The notes: generated by a model from the sequence alone, not told the origin. 18,864 nucleotides of DNA from a virus (IMGVR_UViG_2693429676_000005); one strand, 5' to 3'. Shown: positions 2,297-18,864, numbered from the stretch's first letter. Numbers and translations are program-made.

Positions 2297-2736
2297 ACTT
2301 TGCCCTCAGACTGGCGCGTGAGATGGGGAGACCCGACTGGCGCGCCATGCTTGCCGGGATGACATCCACCGAATATGCCGACTGGCGCCGTTTTTACCGC
2401 ACGCATTATTTTCAGGATACCCAGCTGGATATGCATTTTTCCGGGCTGACGTACGCTGTACTCAGCCTGTTTTTTTGCGATCCGGATATGCATCCCTCTG
2501 ATTTCAGTCTGCTTGTCCCCCGGCATGAGGAAGAGCAGGTGGAGAGGCCGGATGAGGACAAAATGCTGATGCAGAAAGCGGCAGGACTTGCCGGAGGCGT
2601 CCGGTTCGGTGGGGACGGAGGGCGCGATATTTTATCGTCTGCGGATGTGGCGGATGTCATGGTGGATGATGCCGCATTAATGATGGCTTCAGCGGGGATT
2701 CCGGGAGGTGTGAGATATGTCCCAGCCGGTTGGTGA
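2272..2736 (+). CDS. T: tail assembly protein T, made as a G-T fusion by -1 programmed frameshift
   Basis: Frame 1 is open from the slippery site and reads KVFDGELNFALRLAREMGRPDWRAMLAGMTSTEYADW..., matching recalled lambda T. It has no start codon or RBS of its own until M at 2323, and is -1 relative to G. Confidence 0.8.
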   Translation, partial: GKVFDGELNFALRLAREMGRPDWRAMLAGMTSTEYADWRRFYRTHYFQDTQLDMHFSGLTYAVLSLFFCDPDMHPSDFSLLVPRHEEEQVERPDEDKMLMQKAAGLAGGVRFGGDGGRDILSSADVADVMVDDAALMMASAGIPGGVRYVPAGW

Positions 2737-5307
2737 TCTTGTTATTGACCTGAGTCTGGATGCTGTCCGTTTCGATGAGCAGATGAGCCGGGTAAGGCGT
2801 CATTTTTCAGGTCTGGATACCGACGCCAGAAAAACCGCCAGTGCTGTTGAACAGGGCCTGAGCCGCCAGGCGCTGGCTGCACAAAAAGCCGGGATTTCCG
2901 TCGGGCAGTATAAAGCGGCCATGCGAACCCTGCCCGCACAGTTTACGGATATCGCCACGCAGCTTGCCGGTGGTCAGAATCCCTGGCTGATCCTGCTGCA
3001 ACAGGGCGGTCAGGTGAAGGACTCCTTCGGCGGGATGATCCCCATGTTCAGGGGGCTTGCCGATGCGATCACCCTGCCGATGGTCGGGGTCACCTCGCTG
3101 GCGGTGGCGACAGGTGCACTGGTGTACGCCTGGTACCAGGGAGATTCCACGCTTTCAGCGTTTAATAAAACCCTGGTTCTTTCCGGTAATCAGTCCGGAC
3201 TGACTGCCGATCGTATGCTGACTCTCTCAAGAGCCGGGCAGGCAGCAGGGCTGACGTTTAACCAGGCGAGAGAGTCACTGGCAGCCCTGGTGAATGCCGG
3301 TGTGCGTGGTGGTGAACAGTTTGATGCCATCAACCAGAGTGTCGCGCGTTTTGCGTCTGCATCCGGTGTGGAGGTGGATAAAGTCGCTGAAGCCTTCGGG
3401 AAGCTGACCACTGACCCGACGTCGGGACTGATGGCGATGGCGCGCCAGTTCCGTAACGTGACGGCAGAGCAGATTGCGTATGTTGCACAGCTGCAGCGTT
3501 CCGGAGACGAGGCCGGGGCATTGCAGGCGGCGAACGATATCGCCACGAAAGGCTTTGATGAGCAGACCCGTCGCCTGAAAGAAAACATGGGAACACTGGA
3601 GACCTGGGCGGATAAAACAGGGAAGGCATTCAAATCGATGTGGGATGCCATTCTGGATATCGGTCGTCCGGAATCCTCAGCGGATATGCTCGCCAGTGCG
3701 CAGAAGGCATTTGATGAGGCGGATAAAAAATGGCAGTGGTACCAGAGTCGGAGCCAGCGCCGCGGTAAAACCTCCTCTTTCCGGGCCAACCTTCAGGGCG
3801 CATGGGATGACCGGGAAAATGCCCGTCTGGGTCTGGCAGCGGCAACGCTGCAGTCGGATATGGAAAAAGCCGGTGAACTGGCGGCAAGGGACAGGGCTGA
3901 GCGTGAGTCGTCACAGCTGAAGTATACCGGAGAGGCGCAGAAGGCGTATGAGCGCCTGCTGACGCCACTGGAGAAATATACCGCCCGGCAGGAAGAGCTG
4001 AATAAGGCCCTGAAAGACGGGAAAATCCTGCAGGCGGATTACAACACGCTGATGGCGTCGGCAAAAAAGGATTATGAGTCGACGCAGAAAAAGCCGTCCG
4101 GTGTGAAGGTGTCTGCCGGTGAGCGCCAGGAAGACCAGGCGCATGCAGCCCTGCTGGCGCTTGAAACTGAGCTCAGGACGCTGGAGAAGCACAGCGGTGC
4201 GAATGAAAAAATCAGCCAGCAGCGCCGTGATTTATGGAAAGCGGAAAATCAGTATGTGGTCCTGAAAGAGGCCGCCACGAAACGGCAGTTATCTGAGCAG
4301 GAAAAATCCCTGCTGGCCCATGAGAAAGAAACGCTGGAGTACAAACGCCAGCTGGCTGAGCTGGGCGACAAGATTGAACACCAGAAACGGCTGAATGAGC
4401 TGGCACAGCAGGCGGCGCGGTTTGAACAGCAGCAGAGCGCGAAGCAGGCGGCAATCAGCGCAAAAGCCCGCGGACTCACCGACCGTCAGGCGCAGCGGGA
4501 GTCGGAAGAGCAGCGCCTTCGTGAGGTGTACGGTGATAATCCGGCTGCGCTGGCGAAGGCCACATCTGCACTGAAGAACACCTGGTCTGCGGAGGAGCAG
4601 CTTCGTGGAAGCTGGATGGCCGGGATGAAGTCCGGCTGGGGCGAGTGGGCGGAAAGTGCGACGGACAGTTTTTCGCAGGTTAAAAACGCGGCCACGCAGA
4701 CCTTTGACGGTATTGCACAGAATATGGCAGCGATGCTGATCGGCAGCGAACAGAACTGGCGTGGTTTCACCCGTTCTGTGCTGTCCATGCTGACAGAGAT
4801 TTTTCTGAAGCAGGCGATGGTGGGGATAGTCGGGAGTATCGGCAGCGCCATTGGCGGTGCTTTCGGTGGTGGTGCGTCTGCCTCCACGGGGACGGCCATT
4901 CAGGCTGCGGCGGCGAACTTCCATTTCGCGACCGGGGGATTTACGGGGACGGGGGGTAAATATGAACCTGCGGGGATTGTTCATCGCGGGGAGTTTGTCT
5001 TCACGAAGGAGGCGACCAGCCGGATTGGTGTCGGCAATCTGTACCGCCTGATGCGGGGCTATGCGGAAGGTGGTTATGTCGGCGGTGCCGGAAGTCCGGC
5101 GCAGATGCGGCGGGNNNNNNNNNNNNNNNNNNNNNAGGCATTAATTTTAATCAGAACAATCACGTGGTGATTCAGAACGACGGCCCCAACGGGCGGGCAG
5201 GGCCGCAGCTGATGAAAGCGGTGTATGAGATGGCCCGCAAGGGGGCACAGGATGAACTCCGGCTGCAGTTGCGTGATGGCGGTATGTTATCAGGGAGCGG
5301 TGGATGA
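2717..5307 (+). CDS. H: tail tape measure protein H (interrupted by a 21-N scaffold gap at 5115-5135)
   Basis: Long ORF starting MSQPVGDLVIDLSLDAVRF; start overlaps the T stop. After the N run the protein continues in another frame (GINFNQNNHVVIQNDG...LRDGGMLSGSGG) to TGA at 5305-5307, which overlaps the M start. The frame change means the N-run length is not the true gap length. Confidence 0.88.
5115..5135. other. scaffold gap (21 N) inside H
   Basis: Run of n in the sequence; reading frame differs on the two sides. Confidence 0.95.
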
Positions 5308-8006: not shown

Positions 8007-10635
8007 ATGGGAAAAGGTGGCGGTAAGGCACACACGCCTCGTGAGGCGAAGGATAATCTCAAATCCACGCAGATGATGAGCGTGATTGATGCGATTGGTG
8101 AGGGACTGATAGAAGGTCCGGTGAAGGGACTGCAGAGTATCCTGGTGAACAAAACCCCGCTGACGGACACGGACGGTAATCCCGTGATACACGGTGTGAC
8201 GGCGGTCTGACGCGCCGGGGAGCAGGAGCAGACACCACCGGAAGGCTTTGAGTCCTCCGGTGCTGAAACCGGACTGGGCGTGGAAGTGACGAAGGCAAAA
8301 CCGGTGACGCGCACCATTACGTCCGCGAACATTGACCGCCTGCGGGTTACCTTCGGGGTGCAGTCACTGGTGCAGACCACGTCAAAGGGTGACCGAAACC
8401 CGACATCCGTCCGCCTGCTGATTCAGTTACAGCGTAACGGTAACTGGGTGACAGAAAAGGATGTCACCATTAACGGCAAGACCACCTCGCAGTTTCTGGC
8501 GTCGGTGATTCTGGATAATCTGCCTCCCCGTCCTTTTAACATCCGGATGGTCCGGGAGACAGCGGACAGCACCACGGACCAGCTGCAGAATAAGACGCTG
8601 TGGTCGTCATACACCGAAATCATCGATGTGAAACAGTGCTACCCGAACACGGCCATTGTGGGGCTGCAGGTGGATGCGGAGCAGTTCGGCGGCCAGCAGA
8701 TGACGGTGAACTACCATATCCGCGGTCGCATCATCCAGGTGCCGTCAAACTATGACCCGGAAAAACGCACGTACAGTGGTATCTGGGACGGTAGCCTGAA
8801 ACCGGCATACAGCAACAATCCGGCCTGGTGTCTGTGGGACATGCTGACTCACCCGCGCTACGGCATGGGAAAACGTCTGGGGGCGGCGGATGTGGACAAG
8901 TGGGCGCTGTATGCCATCGGGCAGTACTGCGACCAGACGGTCCCGGATAGTTTCGGGGAGACCGAGCCGCGGATGACCTTCAATGCGTACCTGGCACAAC
9001 AGCGTAAGGCATGGGACGTGCTCAGTGATTTCTGCTCGGCGATGCGCTGTATGCCGGTATGGAACGGCCAGACGCTGACGTTTGTTCAGGACCGCCCGTC
9101 GGATGTGGTGTGGCCGTACACCAACAGCGATGTGGTGGTGGATGATAACGGCGTGGGTTTCCGCTACAGCTTCAGTGCCCTGAAGGACCGGCACACGGCG
9201 GTGGAGGTGAATTATACCGACCCGCAGAACGGCTGGCAGACCTCCACGGAACTGGTGGAAGACCCGGAAGCCATACTGCGCTACGGACGCAACCTGCTGA
9301 AGATGGACGCGTTCGGCTGTACCAGCCGCGGTCAGGCCCACCGTGCCGGACTGTGGGTGATAAAGACCGAACTGCTGGAAACGCAGACGGTGGATTTCAC
9401 GCTCGGGTCTCAGGGGCTGCGGCACACACCCGGTGACATCATTGAAATCTGTGATAACGACTATGCCGGGACCCTGACCGGCGGACGTGTCCTGTCCATT
9501 GATGCTGCCACCCGCACTCTGACGCTGGACCGTGAAGTGACACTTCCGGAGACCGGTGCCGCCACGGTGAACCTGATTAACGGCAGCGGTAAGCCGGTGA
9601 GTGTGGACATCACCGAACACCCCGCGCCGGACCGGATACAGGTCAGTACCCTGCCTGATGGTGTGGAGACATACGGGGTGTGGGGACTCTCCCTGCCGTC
9701 ACTGCGCCGTCTCCTGTTCCGCTGTGTCTCCGTCCGGGAAAACACGGACGGCACCTTTGCCATCACGGCGGTGCAGCACGTACTGGAAAAAGAAGCCATC
9801 GTGGATAACGGTGCCCGCTTTGAGCCGCAGTCAGGTTCCCTGAACAGCGTCATCCCACCGGCAGTGCAGCACCTGACGGCCAGTATCTGGCGCAGGCGAA
9901 ATGGGACACGCCGCGGGTGGTGAAGGGTGTGCGCTTCAGTCTGCGCCTGACCAGTGGTAAGGGAACGGATGCCAGACTGGTGACCACCGCCATCACCGCA
10001 GACACGGAGCACCGTTTCAGCGGCCTGCCGCTCGGGGAATACACCCTGACGGTGCGGGCGATAAACAGCTATGGCCAGCAGGGTGAACCTGCCACCACCA
10101 CCTTCCGGATTGCCGCACCGGCAGCACCGTCGCGGATTGAGCTGACGCCGGGCTATTTTCAGATAACCGCCACGCCGCATCTTGCGGTTTATGATCCGAC
10201 GGTACAGTTTGAGTTCTGGTTCTCGGAAAAGCGGATTGCGGATATCAGGCAGGTTGAAACCACAGCACGCTATCTTGGCACGGCGCTGTACTGGATAGCC
10301 GCCAGTATCAATATCAAACCGGGCCATGATTATTACTTTTATATCCGCAGTGTGAACACCGTTGGCAAATCGGCATTCGTGGAGGCTGTTGGTCAGCCGA
10401 GTGATGATGCATCCGGTTATCTGGATTTTTTCAAAGGCGAGATAGGGAAAACCCATCTGGCTCAGGAGCTGTGGACGCAGATTGATAACGGTCAGCTTGC
10501 GCCTGACCTGGCTGAAATCAGGACGTCCATTACGGATGTCAGCAATGAAATCACGCAGACCGTCAATAAGAAACTGGAAGACCAGAGTGCGGCAATTCAG
10601 CAGATACAGAAGGTTCAGGTTGATACAAATAATAA
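8007..10635 (+). pseudogene. J: tail tip / host-specificity protein J, 5' and central part, disrupted by in-frame TGA (8208-8210) and a frameshift near 9875
   Basis: MGKGGGKAHTPREAKDNLKSTQ... matches recalled lambda J N-terminus. The same frame resumes after the TGA (RAGEQEQTPPEGFESSG...TRTITSANIDRL) and runs to 9923. Homology then continues in frame 2 from about 9875 ([20 protein letters not shown], cf. lambda GEYQVLARWDTPKVVKGV). Central FN3-like region present ([16 protein letters not shown]). Confidence 0.85.
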
Positions 10636-11078
10636 NCCCGACGGTACAGTTTGAGTTCTGGTTCTCGGAAAAGCGGATTGCGGATATCAGGCAGGTTGAA
10701 ACCAGCGCCCGCTATCTTGGCACGGCGCTGTACTGGATAGCCGCCAGTATCAATATCAAACCGGGCCATGATTATTATTTTTACGTTCGCAGTGTGAACA
10801 CCGTTGGCAAATCGGCATTCGTGGAGGCTGTCGGTCGGGCGAGCGATGATGCGGAAGGTTACTTGGATTTTTTCAAAGGAGAGATAGGGAAAACACATCT
10901 GGCTCAGGAGCTGTGGACGCAGATTGATAACGGTCAGCTTGCGCCTGACCTGGCTGAAATCAGGACGTCCATTACGGATGTCAGCAATGAAATCACGCAG
11001 ACTGTCAATAAGAAACTGAAAGACCAGAGTGCGGCAATCCAGCAGATACAGAAGGTTCAGGTTGATACAAATAATAAT
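10196..11078. repeat. two tandem, about 96%-identical copies (10196-10635 and 10638-11078) of a J internal segment, separated by a single N
   Basis: Both copies start CCGACGGTACAGTTTGAGTTCTGGTTCTCGGAAAAGCGGATTGCGGATATCAGGCAGGTTGAAACC and end GTTGATACAAATAATAA, with scattered substitutions. Probably an assembly join of two alleles. Confidence 0.8.
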
Positions 11079-11900
11079 CTGAACAGCATGTGGGCTGTGA
11101 AGCTGCAACAGATGAAGGACGGACGCCTTTATATTGCGGGTATCGGTGCCGGTATTGAGAATACGCCAGCAGGAATGCAGAGTCAGGTGCTGCTGGCGGC
11201 AGACAGGATTGCGATGATTAATCCTGCGAATGGCAACACAAAGCCGATGTTTGTTGGTCAGGGCGATCAGATATTCATGAACGACGTGTTCCTGAAACGC
11301 CTGACGGCTCCCACCATTACCAGCGGCGGTAATCCTCCGGCATTTTCCCTGACACCGGACGGAAAACTGACCGCTAAAAATGCAGATATCAGTGGCAGTG
11401 TGAATGCGAACGCCGGGACGCTCAACAATGTCACAATTAATGAGAACTGTCAGATTAAGGGGAAACTGTCAGCCAACCAGATTGAAGGCGATATAGTCAA
11501 AACAGTGGGTAAGGCTTTTCCGCGGGACTCCCGGGCACCGGAGCGGTGGCCATCAGGGACCATTACCGTCAGGATTTATGACGATCAGCCTTTTGACAGG
11601 CAAATTGTTATTCCGGCGGTGGCATTCAGCGGCGCTAAACATGAGCGGGAGAATAACGATATTTATTCGTCATGCCGCCTGATAGTACGGAAAAACGGTG
11701 CTGAAATTTATAACCGTACCGCGCTGGATAATACGCTGATTTACAGTGGTGTTATTGATATGCCAGCTGGTCGCGGCCACATGACGCTGGAGTTTTCGGT
11801 GTCAGCATGGCTGGTGAATAACTGGTATCCCACAGCAAGTATCAGCGATTTGCTGGTTGTGGTGATGAAGAAAGCCACCGCAGGCATCAGTATCAGCTGA
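10638..11900 (+). CDS. J: J 3' portion, allele A (receptor-binding C-terminus ending ...[10 protein letters not shown])
   Basis: Frame 0 from 10638 reads [21 protein letters not shown]...[54 protein letters not shown]..., which matches the recalled lambda J C-terminal region. Stop at 11898-11900. Confidence 0.7.
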
Positions 11901-11919
11901 ATTTTATAACCCATATACG

Positions 11920-11946
11920 GGCGCCAGAAATGGCGCCTTTTTTATT
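11920..11946 (+). terminator. intrinsic terminator after J allele A
   Basis: GGCGCC / agaaat / GGCGCC followed by TTTTTTTATT. Confidence 0.65.
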
Positions 11947-11967
11947 GCAGAAAAGCGAGAGGTAATT

Positions 11968-12014
11968 ATGCGTAAAGTTTGTGCAGCCATTTTGTCCGCA
12001 GCCATCTGTCTGTC
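11968..12014 (+). other. lom: lom 5' fragment (allele A), cut off by NNNN at 12015-12018
   Basis: ATGCGTAAAGTTTGTGCAGCCATTTTGTCCGCAGCCATCTGTCTGTC encodes MRKVCAAILSAAICL, the same signal-peptide start as the complete lom at 12995, with 3 nucleotide differences. Confidence 0.6.
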
Positions 12015-12018
12015 NNNN
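12015..12018. other. scaffold join (4 N) between lom 5' fragment and J allele B
   Basis: NNNN joins two unrelated sequence contexts (lom start, then J internal sequence). Confidence 0.9.
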
Positions 12019-12924
12019 AAACTGGAAGACCAGAGTGCGGCAATTCAGCAGATACAGAAGGTTCAGGTTGATACAAATAATAACCTGAACAGCATGTGGG
12101 CTGTGAAGCTGCAGCAGATGCAGGACGGACGCCTTTATATCGCGGGTATTGGTGCCGGTATTGAGAACACCCCTGACGGCATGCAGAGTCAGGTGCTGCT
12201 GGCGGCGGACAGGATTGCGATGGTTAATCCTGCGAATGGCAACACAAAACCGATGTTTGTTGGTCAGGGCGATCAGATATTCATGAACGACGTGTTCCTG
12301 AAACGCCTGACGGCCCCCACCATTACCAGCGGTGGAAATCCATCGGCATTTTCCCTGACTCCGGACGGAAAGCTGACCGCTAAAAATGCGGATATCAGTG
12401 GCAGTGTGAATGCGAACGCCGGGACGCTCAACAATGTCACGGTAAATGAAAACTGTACGATTAAGGGCATGCTGGAGGCGACTCAGGTCAGAGGTGACTT
12501 CGTTAAAGCTGTATCCAAATCATTTCCGAAACAGGCTGGTACGTGGGGTAACACGGAAACACCAAACGGGACGGTTACAGTCACCATAAGCGATGATCAT
12601 AACTTTGACCGCCAGATTATTATTCCGCCCATTATTTTTAACGGTATAGCGTATGACGATCCGGGGAGCGGAAATAACCCAGGAGGCACGCGATACACGG
12701 GTTATGGTTTTGAAGTTCGCAAAAACGGCGTATTAATCGCATCCAGAGAAACTAAAGGTGCCATTCCCGGTAGTTACAGTGCAGTTATTGATATGCCTAG
12801 TGGTGGTGGTAGCGTCACTCTGGAGTTTAAGATTTTCCAGAAAGGCAATCAGGGGGCAGGCAATATCACCGACTGTACGGTGATTGTGACCAAAAAAGCG
12901 GCTTCCGGCATCAGTATTCGTTGA
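12019..12924 (+). CDS. J: J 3' portion, allele B (distinct receptor-binding C-terminus ending ...KKAASGISIR); likely the true continuation of J from 10635
   Basis: 12019-12083 is identical to 10571-10635, so the two pieces overlap as unitigs. Downstream reads [24 protein letters not shown]...[53 protein letters not shown]..., then a C-terminal about 140 aa unrelated to allele A. Stop at 12922-12924. Confidence 0.75.
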   Translation, partial: KLEDQSAAIQQIQKVQVDTNNNLNSMWAVKLQQMQDGRLYIAGIGAGIENTPDGMQSQVLLAADRIAMVNPANGNTKPMFVGQGDQIFMNDVFLKRLTAPTITSGGNPSAFSLTPDGKLTAKNADISGSVNANAGTLNNVTVNENCTIKGMLEATQVRGDFVKAVSKSFPKQAGTWGNTETPNGTVTVTISDDHNFDRQIIIPPIIFNGIAYDDPGSGNNPGGTRYTGYGFEVRKNGVLIASRETKGAIPGSYSAVIDMPSGGGSVTLEFKIFQKGNQGAGNITDCTVIVTKKAASGISIR

Positions 12925-13745: not shown

Positions 13746-16502
13746 ATGACAGTAAAAATTTCTGGCGTGCTTAAAGATGGCACAGGAAAACCAGTACAGA
13801 ACTGCACCATTGTGCTGAAGGCCAGACGAACCAGCAGCACGATGGTGGTGAACACGGTGGCCTCTGAAAATCCGGATGAAGCCGGACGTTACAGCATGGA
13901 TGTTGAGCATGGTCAGTACAGCGTCACCCTGCTGGTTGAAGGTTTTCCGCCTTCACATGCCGGGACCATTACCGTCTATGAAGGTTCCAGACCAGGTACG
14001 CTGAATGATTTTCTCGGTGCCATGACGGAGGATGATGTCCGACCGGAGGCACTGCGCCGCTTTGAGCAGATGGTGGAAGAGGTGTCACGTAACGCCTCCG
14101 CGGTTGCACAGAATACGGCAGCCGCGAAAAAATCAGCCAGCGAGGCGGCAACTCATGCAACCGATGCTGCAGCCTCAGCACGTGCCGCCAGCACGTCAGC
14201 CGGACAGGCCGCGTCGTCGGCTCAGTCAGCGTCTTCCAGCGCAGGAACGGCATCGACAAAGGCCCGTGAAGCAGCAAAAAGTGCTGCTGCAGAGTCATCA
14301 AAAAGCGCGGCAGCTACCAGCGCCAGTGCCGCGAAAACGTCAGAAACGAATGCCGCAGCATCACAAAAATCGGCAGCCACTTCTGCATCCACAGCGACCA
14401 CGAAGGCGTCAGAAGCTGCCACCTCGGCACGGGGTGCGGCGGCCTCAAAAGAGGCAGCGAAATCTTCAGAAACGAATGCATCATCGAGTGCCAGTAGTGC
14501 AGCTTCCTCGGCAACGGCGGCAGGAAATTCCGCGAAGGCGGCAAAAACGTCCGAGACGAACGCTAAGTCTTCTGAAACAGCAGCGGGACAGAGCGCCTCA
14601 GCTGCGGCAGGTTCAAAAACAGCGGCTGCATTATCTGCCAGTGCCGCGTCAACAAGTGCCGGGCAGGCCTCAGCCAGTGCCACCGCCGCCGGAAAATCGG
14701 CAGAAAGCGCCGCATCATCCGCTTCAACAGCCACAACGAAGGCTGGCAAAGCCACTGAGCAAGCCACTGCAGCAGCGAGGTCTGCTTCTGCAGCAAAAAC
14801 CTCTGAAACAAATGCAAAGACTTCAGCAGACAATGCTGCTTCCTCTAAGGCAGCAGCCGCATCGTCAGCCAGTTCAGCGGCGTCATCGGCATCATCTGCG
14901 TCTGCTTCAAAAGATGAGGCGACCAGACAAGCGTCAGCAGCGAAAGGTAGTGCCACGACAGCAACAACGAAAGCATCAGAGGCGGCAGGCAGTGCGACGG
15001 CTGCATCTCAGAGCAAAGTTGCTGCTGAATCCGCGGCAACGCGCGCCGAGACAGCAGCAAAACGGGCAGAGGATATTGCATCCGCCGTGGCGCTTGAGGA
15101 TGCGAGCACGACGAAAAAGGGGATAGTACAGCTCAGCAGTGCGACCAACAGCACTTCCGAGTCACTGGCGGCAACGCCAAAAGCGGTTAAGGCGGTAATG
15201 GGTGAAACGAACAAGAAAGCGCCCTTAAATAGTCCTGCACTGACCGGAACGCCAACAACACCAACTGCGCGACAGGGAACGAATAATACCCAAATCGCAA
15301 GCACGGCTTTCGTTATGGCTGCGATTGCCGCCCTTGTAGATTCGTCACCTGATGCACTGAACACGCTGAACGAGCTGGCTGCGGCGCTGGGCAACGACCC
15401 GAATTTTGCGACCACCATGACTAACGCGCTTGCGGGTAAGCAACCGAAAGATGCCACCCTGACGGCGCTGGCCGGACTTACTACTGCGGCAGGCAAGTTT
15501 CCGTATTTTACGGGGAATGATGTCGCCAGCCTGGCAACCCTGACAAAAGTCGGGCGGGATATTCTTGCGAAATCGACCGTTGCTGCCGTTATCGAATACC
15601 TCGGTTTACAGGAAACGGTAAACAAGGCTGGTAACGCCGTTCAGCGTTCCGGCGATAAAATGACCGGAGAACTGAAAATTGGCACGGTGAATGCGCTGCG
15701 AATTTTCAATGATACCTTCGGTCTAATTTTCCGTCGTTCAGAAGATTTTCTTCATTTCATTCCGACGGCTGAAGGACAAGGCGAAAACGGTAATATCGGC
15801 CCATTAAGGCCATTCGCTATAAATCTGAGAACAGGTGCTATATCTGTCAGCCACGGGGCCAAAATTAAAGGAGGTCTAGCTATTGGAGCTACTGATAACG
15901 CACTGGGTGAAAACTCCATTGTTCTGGGAGATAACGACACCGGATTTAGGCAAGATGGAGATGGTATTATTAGCTTCTATTCAAATGGTTCGCGCATCGG
16001 ACATATTGATGAGTTAGGATTACATCTTTATAAAGATATTGAATCTAATGGCAGCAATTTTAGATTAAAAAGTAATTACCGCCACCACATTACATTCGCC
16101 AACGAAGACGGAAGAATTCGTATGTTTTTGTGGAAAGATAACGGTGGTGATGGTGTTCATATTAATAACGGTTCAGATGGTGGTGGTGATTTCATTTTTA
16201 AAACAGATGGGGGATTTGCGCTGGGAAGTGGTGCGCAAGTTGCGTCTAGTGGCGATATTTATGGTTCAGTGTGGGAAAACAACTGGTTAAGCACATGGCT
16301 GCATAATCATGTCGTTCGGGATATTCGTCTTGGCAGCATTGAATATAAAAACGTATGGCGCGACTACGGCTTTGGCGATGCGTCAGGTTATGTTTTAACA
16401 GCCGCAATTAACAGCAATGCGGATGATATTGTCGACACTGTTGCCAGAAGGCCAATTCAGAAATTGATTGGGGGAATATGGTACAACGTGGGGAGTGTTT
16501 AA
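13746..16502 (+). CDS. stf: side tail fibre protein Stf (constant N-terminal part plus invertible variable C-terminal part)
   Basis: 918-aa ORF. N-terminus [28 protein letters not shown]...[33 protein letters not shown] is near-identical to recalled lambda Stf, followed by a long Ala/Ser/Thr-rich repetitive shaft (KTSETNA repeats). The region after the crossover site at 15589-15614 is the exchangeable tip. Confidence 0.9.
15589..15614. other. left crossover site for invertase (gix/pix/hix-like, 26 bp), inside stf
   Basis: TTATCGAATACC TC GGTTTACAGGAA. The reverse complement of the right site (18505-18530) is TTATCTAAAACC TC GGTTTACGAGAA, giving 21/26 identity in inverted orientation, two 12-bp half-sites around a 2-bp core. 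Matches the recalled gix pattern. Confidence 0.7.
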
Positions 16503-16503
16503 G

Positions 16504-17031
16504 ATGATGCACCTGAAAAATATTAAGGCCGGGAATCCGAAAACACCGGAACAATACCAGCTAACTAAAAAAGCGGGCGTGGTATGGCTCTTTTGCGAAG
16601 ATGGCAAAAACTGGTATGAGGAACAAAAGAATTTTCAGCCAGACACCATAAAAATTGCTTACGATGAGAACAACATCATCGTTGCTGTCAGTAAAGACGT
16701 TTCAACTATTAATCCTGAAGGGCTAAGCATAGTTGAAGTTCCTGATATTACGGCAAATCGTCACGCAGACAATAACGGAAAATGGATGTTTCTGGATGGT
16801 AAAGTAGTAAAGAGGGAATATACAGAACAGGAACTGCAACAACAGGCCGAATCACAAAAGGCCGCATTGCTTTCCGAAGCTGAATCAGTCATCCAGCCGC
16901 TGGAACGCGCTGTCAGGCTGAATATGGCAACAGACGAGGAACGCACACGACTGGAAGCATGGGAACGCTACAGTGTTCTGGTCAGCCGTGTGGATACGGC
17001 AAATCCTGAATGGCCACAAAAGCCTGAATAA
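16504..17031 (+). CDS. tfa: tail fibre assembly chaperone Tfa (partner of + orientation fibre tip)
   Basis: Starts 1 nt after the stf stop: [41 protein letters not shown]... This is a typical Tfa N-terminus and is paralogous to the inverted copy at 17060-17593. Confidence 0.88.
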
Positions 17032-17036
17032 AAATT

Positions 17037-17056
17037 AAGGCCCGATAGCGGGCCTT
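17037..17056. terminator. hairpin between convergent tfa genes (terminator, U-tract on - strand)
   Basis: AAGGCCCG / atag / CGGGCCTT. On the - strand it is followed by AATTTTTATT. Confidence 0.6.
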
Positions 17057-17059
17057 CTC

Positions 17060-17593
17060 TCATTCTGGTTGTTCGGGAAACGTTACTGGCAGGCTGGAGG
17101 TGTCTGTGGATTCAACCTTCTGCGCATAGAGCATCCACTCGGTTAATTTTTGTTTATTCTCATCGGAAATGATGCCCAGCTGTAGCTGAGAGTCCCACAG
17201 CTGGGTTTTATCCCTGACGAGCTGCAGCAGGCTCTGCTTTTCATTTTCCGCTTGTTGCCTTTGCTCTTCCTCGGTATAAGTTCGCTTTATCACCGCACCA
17301 TCTTTGAACATCCAGTTGCCCGAAATATCAGCCCGGCGATTTGCTGTAATATCAGGCAACTCAACGACACTTAAACCTTCTGGATTAATTGCTGATACAT
17401 CCTTGTCTATAGCAATAATTATTCCCTCAACTGTGTAAGCCAGTTTTATTGTATCCTCCTGAAAGTTTTTTAATTCCTCATGCCAATTTTTTCCATCTTC
17501 GGACCATAACCAGATAACATCAAAATTCTTTGTTAGCTGGTATTGTTCAACGGTTTTTGGATTACCTGCGACAATGTTTTTTAAATGCTGCAT
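17060..17593 (-). CDS. tfa: tail fibre assembly chaperone Tfa' (alternative, inside invertible segment)
   Basis: 177-aa [43 protein letters not shown]..., with a conserved N-terminal about 95 aa shared with the + strand Tfa and a different C-terminus. Confidence 0.88.
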
Positions 17594-17595
17594 GA

Positions 17596-18522
17596 TTATA
17601 CCTGCGATACGTTATACCATGTTCCGTTAATTAACTTTTGTATTGGTCTGAATACTGCCGGATCATCACCATCGACTTCACCGATAATACCAAGCCCCGT
17701 GATTACATGGCCTGATTTTTCATACATCACGCCTTTCTTCATGGTCTAAACAACTCGTGTGCCAAGTCTGACATCTCTCACATAGCGGGAATCAAAGTTA
17801 CCGTAATCCGAGGGATTAACACGTCCCGTAATATTTATGGTTTTATTACTTTGAATGCTTCCGGAGACAAAGCGCATAACATGGACGTTATTAGCATAAA
17901 CATCCAGATTACCATCGCCTTTTTGTTTAAAGCCCGTGTCATTATCACCCAATACAATCGAATTACCGCCAAGAGCACTGGATGTTCCGATACCCAGTGC
18001 ACCATTCAGTTGACCACCAGATAACGGCAGTGCACCAACATCTCCTGCTGAAGGTTTTCTGGTGGTGTAAAATTCGGACCAGTCGGCTTCAAAACCATAA
18101 CCATCACGGGCTGAACGATAAAAAATACCGCCATTTTTATAATTAATCCGAAACTGAGCTGCAGGACAACTTCCTTCTCCCATATAAAAATGAATAATTA
18201 ACGTTGATGCACCACTAATAGTTGCGTTATAGGCTCCGCTACTCCAGTTCCATCCAACTGCTTTATCATTCGCAACGGTGCTTCCTGTTTTCCCTAAGGC
18301 AAACGCACCAACATGACTTGCTTTTAATGTGATATCGGAGGAACCATCAAAAGCCACATTGCTTATTTTCCTGGCAGTTTTTAATTTTGCAGCTGTAGAA
18401 GCATTGCCGGATAGTTCACCAGAAAGGCCACCGCTGAATGTTTGTCGATTAGTCCAGGTATTCGCTGTACTGAGTAACGGTATTTTCTCCCCGCTTGTGC
18501 CGAGTTCTCGTAAACCGAGGTT
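17596..18522 (-). pseudogene. stf: alternative tail fibre variable C-terminus (Sv'), no own start codon, interrupted by in-frame TAG at 17746-17748
   Basis: - strand frame is open from just inside the right crossover site (NLGLRELGTSGEKIPLLSTANTWTNRQTF...) with no ATG. Contains [21 protein letters not shown], paralogous to Stf [21 protein letters not shown]. After the TAG the same frame continues for 48 codons ending [18 protein letters not shown], paralogous to the Stf C-terminus [18 protein letters not shown]. Confidence 0.75.
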
Positions 18523-18530
18523 TTAGATAA
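18505..18530. other. right crossover site for invertase (gix/pix-like, 26 bp)
   Basis: TTCTCGTAAACC GA GGTTTTAGATAA, close to the recalled Mu gix sequence TTCCTGTAAACCGAGGTTTTGGATAA. Lies directly upstream of the invertase gene, as in Mu, P1 and e14. Confidence 0.75.
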
Positions 18531-18584
18531 TGGCGGTTTCTGGCCTGCATGGCATGATTTGTGCTTTTGGACGGGAGATTCAGC

Positions 18585-18864
18585 GTGCTGATTGGCTATG
18601 TAAGGGTATCAACAAATGACCAGAATACAGACCTGCAACGAAACGCTCTTGTTTGTGCAGGATATGAACAAATATTTGAAGATAAATTAAGCGGAACAAG
18701 GACAGGCCGACCTGGATTAAAACGTGCTTTAAAGCGCCTTCAAAAAGGTGACGCACTGGTTGTCTGAAAACTGGACTGACTGGGTCACTGTATGCGGCAT
18801 CTTGTCGTGCTGGTGGTGGAAGCCTAGAAAAAGTATCGGGTGTTGCTGAACCGTGTTGATACAT
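18585..18864 (+). pseudogene. pin: Pin/Gin/Hin-family serine DNA invertase, 5' part; in-frame stops after codon 60; 3' end beyond window
   Basis: From GTG 18585: (M)LIGYVRVSTNDQNTDLQRNALVCAGYEQIFEDKLSGTRTGRPGLKRALKRLQKGDALVV, near-identical to recalled Pin/Gin N-termini including the catalytic Ser in VRVSTNDQ. TGA then replaces the conserved W of VVWKLDRLGR (18765-18767), with a second TGA (18777-18779) and a TAG (18825-18827) in the same frame. Confidence 0.8.

Follow-up and report, generated by a model that had tools for sequence, protein, structure and literature searches.

The DNA considered here is an 18,864-nucleotide stretch catalogued as viral (IMGVR_UViG_2693429676_000005; referred to as the window, with positions counted from its first letter), and the element in question is a segment of about 2.9 kb, bounded by two inverted 26-bp recombination sites, which divides the lambda-type tail-fibre gene stf into a constant and an exchangeable part. 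A sequence-only reading had described this region as a complete host-range switch of the Mu G/e14 P type, attached to a lambda-like tail module and accompanied by a Pin/Gin-like invertase gene. Exact-sequence look-ups matched all proteins of the region to Shigella sonnei entries, strain Ss046 among them, and positions 15096-18864 are identical throughout to the chromosome of S. sonnei 53G (HE616528.1). The window is a draft S. sonnei assembly that carries a cryptic, defective lambdoid prophage adjoining the trp operon.

Organization of the Invertible Region

The constant N-terminal part of Stf, which is not moved on inversion, occupies positions 13746-15600 on the + strand, ends in ...VIEYLGL, and contains the phage_tail_N domain PF08400 over residues 1-134 (E 3.6e-69). 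Its 619 amino acids (aa) are 97% identical to Stf of the prophages in Escherichia coli cM8a and NCTC86. In the window it is read into tip 1, the variable C-terminus of about 300 aa that is currently in line (15601-16502, + strand, LQETVNKAG...WYNVGSV, with a gp37_trimer match), the full stf open reading frame (ORF) of 918 aa spanning 13746-16502. Tip 1 is 95% identical to the C-terminus of an H protein that E. coli E300082 encodes in a P2-like prophage, and is followed on the same strand by tfa (16504-17031), whose 175-aa product is the chaperone for tip 1 and carries the Caudo_TAP domain PF02413 (E 7.9e-37). This chaperone is 82% identical to Mu U, and the exact protein is present on more than 1000 contigs named Shigella.

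The other half of the segment is encoded on the - strand. It comprises tfa′ (17060-17593), a 177-aa chaperone for the alternative tip, also of the Caudo_TAP family (PF02413, E 4.8e-34), which is 85% identical to Mu U′ and 55% identical to tfa, and the alternative tip itself (17596-18518; LRELGTSGEKIPLL...WYNVSQV, with a gp37_C match), which begins at the right recombination site and in the window orientation has no promoter, N-terminus, or start of its own. A partial alignment of the two tips gives 31% identity. The alternative tip and the one that E. coli NCTC86 expresses on its Stf are 98.4% identical, and the former contains an in-frame TAG at 17746-17748, where NCTC86 has CAG (Gln); the combination of tips in the window is a mosaic that differs from the E. 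coli relatives. A GC-rich hairpin between the convergent tfa genes (17037-17056; AAGGCCCGCTATCGGGCCTT then AATTTTTATT), with a T-run on the - strand, folds at -20.1 kcal/mol (z = -3.5). It is terminator-like on that strand and probably stops transcription in either orientation of the segment.

ORFs and Pfam agree with the earlier placing of tip and tfa on the + strand and of tfa′ and the alternative tip on the - strand. The layout is that of an invertible tail-fibre locus, with a constant N-terminus outside the segment and two opposed C-termini inside it, each accompanied by a Tfa/U-type chaperone and available for in-frame fusion. A PF08400 N-terminus following J and lom, with a PF02413 chaperone downstream, is likewise what is found for lambda-type Stf and Tfa, and together with the lambda-like operon it upholds the description of a Mu G/e14 P type architecture on a lambda-like tail module.

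The left site (15589-15614, + strand, within stf; TTATCGAATACCTCGGTTTACAGGAA) is of the bixL type and has its core TC at 15601-15602, and the right site (18505-18530, + strand; TTCTCGTAAACCGAGGTTTTAGATAA, reverse complement TTATCTAAAACCTCGGTTTACGAGAA) is of the bixR type and has its core GA at 18517-18518. The two are inverted copies at exactly the positions first proposed, identical at 22 of 26 bases and with complementary cores, and a repeat finder lengthened the match to 30 nt, with 83% complementarity across a spacing of 2890 nt. When the 18.9-kb window was scanned with a degenerate pattern that fits both sites, these were its sole two matches, one on each strand, and 200 shuffles gave 0 matches.

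bixL and bixR are the sites of the Shigella B segment-pinB system (Tominaga, Ikemizu & Enomoto 1991, GenBank D00660) and are tabulated among Din-family sites in PMC3241671. In reverse complement, the left site reproduces published bixL (26/26), and it agrees with Mu gix at 24/26 bases, the Mu inverted repeats having been taken from the phage record (TTATCCAAAACCTCGGTTTACAGGAA). The right site agrees with published bixR at 24/26, its outer half being identical and two bases of its inner half differing, while its reverse complement agrees with Mu gix at 23/26. These alignments bear out the membership of both sites in the gix family: as in the Din family generally, they form an inverted 26-bp pair in which two 12-bp half-sites surround a 2-bp core, with matching cores.

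Inversion of the Segment in Natural Isolates

When positions 15601-18518 were inverted in silico, the constant part of Stf continued in frame into the alternative tip (...VIEYLGLRELGTSGEKIPLL...) and stopped at the TAG, giving a protein of 875 aa. This predicted fusion matches an annotated S. sonnei protein exactly on 72 contigs, and the 918-aa Stf of the window is found on 277, all of these contigs being named Shigella sonnei; the joining of the constant part, through ...VIEYLGL, to the alternative tip had thus been correctly anticipated. The nonsense codon is polymorphic in S. sonnei, with TAG yielding the 875-aa form (72 contigs, protein P0016) and CAG a 925-aa fusion (5 contigs, protein P0212).

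Both orientations, whose existence the sequence-only reading had proposed to check, occur in finished chromosomes, with the crossover inside the 26-bp sites. In finished S. sonnei sequences CP179990.1, VFAD01000001.1, CP044151.1, and UGZF01000005.1 the interval 15585-18534 is reversed at 99.8% identity between collinear flanks, and the window orientation is present in CP032523.1, CP179997.1, HE616528.1, and others. The sites of the inverted strains read TTATCGAATACCTCGGTTTACGAGAA and TTCCTGTAAACCGAGGTTTTAGATAA, that is, the outer halves are kept and the inner halves are swapped: the inverted left site is TTATCGAATACC-TC-GGTTTACGAGAA and the inverted right site is TTCCTGTAAACC-GA-GGTTTTAGATAA, the latter being exactly bixR. 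Since the inner halves are exchanged and the outer ones constant, the crossover lay within the 12-bp identical core, as is expected for cleavage at the central dinucleotide. The same half-site swap relative to the window is seen in the prophages of E. coli cM8a and NCTC86. Occurrence in either orientation after crossover at the cores of the sites is what characterizes Din-family segments.

It could be supposed that no site-specific invertase is involved and that RecA-dependent homologous recombination between the short inverted repeats turned the segment over, since the locus has no working enzyme in cis and inverted repeats can in principle recombine. The crossover, however, falls in the core of canonical gix/bix sites, and the same cells carry a matching invertase with a flipping segment of its own (see below). 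Moreover, over the 30 nt at which the repeats are 83% identical, no more than 12 bp form a perfect core, and such a core is far below the length needed for efficient RecA recombination. We consider this route very improbable.

All fetched loci (numbered with the prefix L) were also searched for the exact 140-bp junctions of the lambdoid allele, and junctions of both orientation states were found inside each of five drafts (L023, L025, L026, L027, and L033). A second, P2-like segment in S. sonnei is 83-95% identical to the lambdoid allele and lacks the CGAGAA inner half-site; because of this missing half-site and the 5-17% divergence, the P2-like locus cannot have supplied the inverted left junction. 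The drafts are chimeric hairpins, and they nevertheless count as evidence because a graph assembler writes only adjacencies that reads support. We read the mixed junctions as mixed orientations in the sequenced cultures, and hence as ongoing inversion. As a separate observation on draft quality, seven S. sonnei drafts (L021, L023, L025, L026, L027, L033, and L038) are hairpin or chimeric concatenations in which the segment is repeated both ways or the contig jumps into the P2-like prophage.

Such assemblies give some colour to the suspicion that the inverted state is itself an assembly artefact generated from the nearly identical P2-like segment: several drafts are chimeric between the lambdoid and P2-like loci, and the window has its own scaffold N runs and artefactual duplications of J. 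Against this stand the clean inverted states of the four finished sequences named above, with their collinear flanks and 99.8% identity across the segment, and the inability of the P2-like allele, at 83-95% identity and without CGAGAA, to give the inverted left junction. The chance that the inverted state is spurious is accordingly put close to nil, lower even than that of a RecA-mediated event.

The Adjacent Invertase Remnant

To the right of the segment lies a fossil of a Gin/Pin-type serine invertase gene (18585-18864, + strand), comprising residues 1-96 of about 190 and cut by the end of the window, in which Pfam detects only the N-terminal Resolvase domain (PF00239, E 1.6e-19). The homologue starts with GTG at 18585, 55 bp beyond the last base of the right site, a spacing identical to that between gixR and gin in Mu. 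The position and spacing first reported for a Pin/Gin-like invertase gene are therefore right, and what stands there is only a fragment with three stops. When the remnant was aligned with Mu gin, e14 pinE, and the intact invertase of a P2-like prophage, in-frame stops emerged at 18765-18767 (TGA), 18777-18779 (TGA), and 18825-18827 (TAG), derived from TGG-to-TGA and CGx-to-TGA changes and a further TAG, together with a 9-bp deletion. Neither Pfam nor the alignment revealed an HTH_7 domain, or any C-terminal half with a DNA-binding domain, in the remnant, and by tblastn homology to invertases beyond residue 99 was absent even in relatives whose sequence extends past the window end, where the window holds residues 1-96. 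In place of the intact adjacent serine recombinase of about 190 aa with a helix-turn-helix domain that accompanies Din-family segments, then, the locus has a dead remnant, and the word "complete" cannot be retained for the switch.

The same lesions are carried by E. coli cM8a and NCTC86, whose remnants are 99% identical, from which it follows that the gene died before these prophages diverged, and that its decay preceded the inversions seen in S. sonnei. With the cis invertase dead, inversion must depend on an enzyme encoded elsewhere. The 5′ end of the remnant has remained very close to Mu gin, with 175 of 180 nucleotides identical and 119 of the first 120. In this family the recombinational enhancer normally lies in the 5′ part of the invertase gene, and it is said to have been placed inside gin itself by Kahmann and colleagues in 1985. 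The Fis-dependent enhancer is a 65-bp element located about 100 bp from one of the sites and acts at a distance (PMC3798978). Judged by this likeness, the gin-like 5′ stretch may retain a working enhancer.

Candidate Enzymes Acting in Trans

Four S. sonnei contigs (L021, L031, L033, and L039) run from the lambdoid locus into a P2-like tail cluster encoding GpU, a tape-measure protein, tube, and sheath. The invertase of this cluster is intact, with 195 aa, Resolvase and HTH_7 domains, and 86% identity to Gin, and the exact protein is widespread in Enterobacteriaceae. The segment that it accompanies is flanked by exactly bixL and bixR, 3075 bp apart, and the lambdoid and P2-like loci have both outer half-sites in common. 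Between contigs L033 (16749-21473) and L039 (16133-20875) the P2-like segment is inverted at 99.7% identity with collinear flanks, the two states encoding an H protein of 650 aa with Tfa′ and one of 678 aa with Tfa. Inversion between two isolates shows that the enzyme of this locus is active in S. sonnei.

The 195-aa invertase of the P2-like prophage is most likely the enzyme that flips the lambdoid segment in trans, and the P2-like locus is, by its sites and size, very probably the B segment-pinB of Tominaga. The D00660 pinB system has been described as "functional in S. sonnei" (PMC3241671). A precedent for action in trans is provided by PinQ of the Qin prophage, which inverts the P segment of e14 (PMC12529663), and e14 and P2-like or Mu segments have been reported to flip constantly in E. 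coli cultures (PMC4272514).

A second trans enzyme is possible. A homology search with a P2-like invertase brought up a Gin-like 190-aa enzyme (P0207), assigned to S. sonnei by one source; it belongs to a Mu-like prophage whose contigs are unrelated to the strains studied here. The chaperone gene of that Mu-like prophage is on opposite strands in L016 (4076-5885) and L017 (4076-5988), so that its own segment too exists in both orientations. In a tblastn search of the invertase against plasmids, Shigella gave no signal among the leading organisms, a result that is uninformative on the trans enzyme.

Condition of the Prophage and of Its Assemblies

The tail module is 97-98% identical to those of prophages in about 2500 E. 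coli genomes, in the order Z...J, lom, stf. The prophages of E. coli cM8a and NCTC86, inserted at this same site of the chromosome, are annotated with lom, stf, tfa, tfa′, a partial fibre gene, and a partial recombinase. By this comparison it is common, and not peculiar, for a lambda tail gene set to be followed by a G-type segment, and the embedding singled out by the sequence-only reading is not unusual. Searches of E. coli genome and phage collections that did not include Shigella, with the region in its native or in-silico inverted form, returned no record with at least 80% coverage, because the region is a mosaic and its source, Shigella, is not in those collections; the partial matches were to the relatives cM8a, NCTC86, E300082, and Mu.

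Part of the apparent decay of the prophage is real and part is not. The J gene is split in S. sonnei 53G and most relatives into ORFs of 547 aa and 513 aa (window 9917-9923; L030 6004-9182), and this is a genuine frameshift, independent of the assembly artefacts of the window. In one S. sonnei draft (L028) J is intact at 1159 aa, with somewhat different gene sizes in the tail module. Among the ten S. sonnei chromosomes found via tfa, six (L006, L008, L009, L010, L012, and L015) have an IS3-family element abutting window position 16214 and a deletion that begins at the lysis genes and ends midway through tip 1; it takes out the entire tail module as well as the left site. With the left site lost, the remaining remnant (equivalent to window 16214-18864) is locked in these six. 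Beyond the invertase fossil, the E. coli relatives (L002 18996-20503; L003 7477-8975) contain several fragments of tail-fibre-assembly genes, a SAM-dependent methyltransferase, and a DUF4376 fragment, which points to repeated deletion and recombination at that end of the prophage.

The window has N runs at 5115-5135, 10636, and 12015-12018, which identify it as a scaffolded draft. The tape-measure ORF at 2717-5170 is 817 aa long here and 857 aa long in other S. sonnei genomes; its early end is an interruption by the 21-N gap and no real mutation. Within 10196-12467, J is partly repeated (10196-10635 resembles 10638-11077 at 95%, and 11013-11461 resembles 12019-12467 at 93%), which makes the window about 1.4-1.5 kb longer here than S. 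sonnei 53G and E. coli cM8a. The repeats start and stop right at the N joins and are most likely artefacts of gap filling or scaffolding that imported the J allele of another prophage. The J duplications and the short H ORF were rejected as signs of real decay, both lying exactly at N runs of the scaffolded draft. Of the decayed state described by the sequence-only reading, the lesions of invertase, alternative tip, and J remain, and part of what appears elsewhere in the window is traced to scaffolding. Invertible segments that have a paralogous copy, it should be warned, corrupt short-read assemblies.

Proposed Mechanism and Its Meaning

Taken together, the region is probably, and in our judgement with good confidence, an inversion switch of the Din family (Gin/Pin/Cin/Hin/PinB type) in the stf gene of an S. 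sonnei cryptic lambdoid prophage, which persists as an orphan substrate flipped in trans. A serine invertase bound at both 26-bp sites would cut the central 2 bp (TC/GA) and rotate the 2.9-kb segment, so that the constant N-terminus of Stf (13746-15600) would be read either into tip 1 and tfa, as in the window, or into the alternative tip and tfa′, as in the inverted state. The upstream late operon would transcribe only the tip and chaperone that stand in line with the constant part. The orphan segment keeps both sites and the gin-like 5′ stretch, and is probably flipped by another Din invertase in the same cell.

Several points weigh against this interpretation. The inner half of the right site, TTCTCG, is two bases off both bixR and gix (TTCCTG). 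The draft contigs with both junctions are visibly chimeric hairpin or scaffold products, which support adjacencies and give no rate of flipping. A four-gamete test with an IS1 insertion-sequence marker downstream of the locus recovered 3 of the 4 combinations, which leaves recurrent inversion among the complete genomes unproven. The equation of the P2-like locus with B segment-pinB depends solely on exact site identity and segment size.

A rival reading is a locked fossil, in which one or a few old inversions, made while an invertase was available, left the two orientations as fixed lineage markers and no flipping takes place today. The cis invertase is dead, the IS1 result could be explained by one event among the complete genomes that were compared, and, of the ten chromosomes found via tfa, the six without a left site cannot be anything but locked. 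In each of five drafts, however, both states of the lambdoid allele are represented by exact 140-bp junctions. Because the lesions of the remnant are shared with E. coli, flips in a clone as young as S. sonnei must already have relied on an enzyme acting in trans, and S. sonnei isolates do contain an intact invertase that has matching sites and is active on its own segment. A locked fossil is therefore regarded as unlikely, although it deserves more weight than either a RecA-mediated event or an artefact, and an orphan switch supplied with its enzyme in trans is preferred.

As a phage host-range device, this orphan switch is almost certainly defunct, since the prophage is defective, with J split and deletions in the tail module, and most strains have a truncated alternative tip. 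Two intact fibres serving a viable phage are not what the locus offers, given the premature TAG, the split J, and the loss of the tail module in many strains, and the working host-range switch of the sequence-only reading has to be given up for the same reasons. All that flipping decides is the Stf variant that could be produced, the full form of 918 aa or the truncated one of 875 aa. A recombinase-activated defence involving PinQ and a chimeric StfE2 of e14 has been reported, and by likeness to PinQ/StfE2 a role on the host side is conceivable but unsupported here. That the orphan switch is kept in S. sonnei for a host trait, with one form of Stf altering susceptibility to other phages or tailocins, is a suggestion made by analogy that we hold to be quite unlikely, somewhat below the locked fossil in likelihood; if it were true, a dead lambdoid prophage would encode a phenotype governed by a P2-like prophage unrelated to it.

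The locus is an orphaned member of a very well known family, known since the 1980s, and opens no new question. Its interest lies in showing that a segment whose own recombinase is long dead can stay a live substrate, and that annotation pipelines which seek an intact adjacent invertase will miss such loci. It would also tie the classic but poorly located B segment-pinB to identifiable prophages in present-day genomes of S. sonnei, and it would provide a natural two-locus case, with a P2-like enzyme donor and a lambdoid orphan substrate, usable for the study of prophage-to-prophage regulation as recently claimed for PinQ and e14.

Comparison with Known Systems

One close counterpart is the Shigella B segment-pinB. 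The left site here is bixL, the right site is exactly bixR in the inverted state, the organization is G-like with two tips and two chaperones, and the host is likewise S. sonnei; the present locus differs in its 619-aa constant part of the lambda Stf type, in a length of 2.9 kb against about 3.1 kb, and in the dead state of its adjacent invertase. The Mu G segment with gin has in common with it the 26-bp sites, the 55-bp spacing, the similarity of Tfa to U and of Tfa′ to U′, and the logic of a constant part with alternative C-termini known from S and S′. In contrast to the fibre of the Mu myovirus, the constant part here is a lambda Stf N-terminus in a siphovirus-type lambdoid prophage, a working gin is lacking, and the tips are 27-44% identical to those of Mu S and S′.

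The e14 P segment with pinE is similar in being an invertible tail-fibre segment of a defective prophage, in flipping in culture, and in undergoing inversion in trans by PinQ (PMC12529663; PMC4272514). It differs in its functional cis pinE, its segment of 1.8 kb, and its pix sites with an AA core, where the present locus has a dead cis enzyme and bix/gix sites with a GA core. With stf-tfa of lambda and with the lambdoid prophages that contain stf-tfa-pin remnants (Rac, Qin, and those at the E. coli ompW/trp site), the locus has the gene order Z-U-V-G-T-H-M-L-K-I-J-lom-stf-tfa in common. Phage lambda itself has, to our knowledge, a single fixed tip and no inversion sites. The prophages of E. 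coli cM8a and NCTC86 have the same segment and the same invertase fossil as the locus in S. sonnei.

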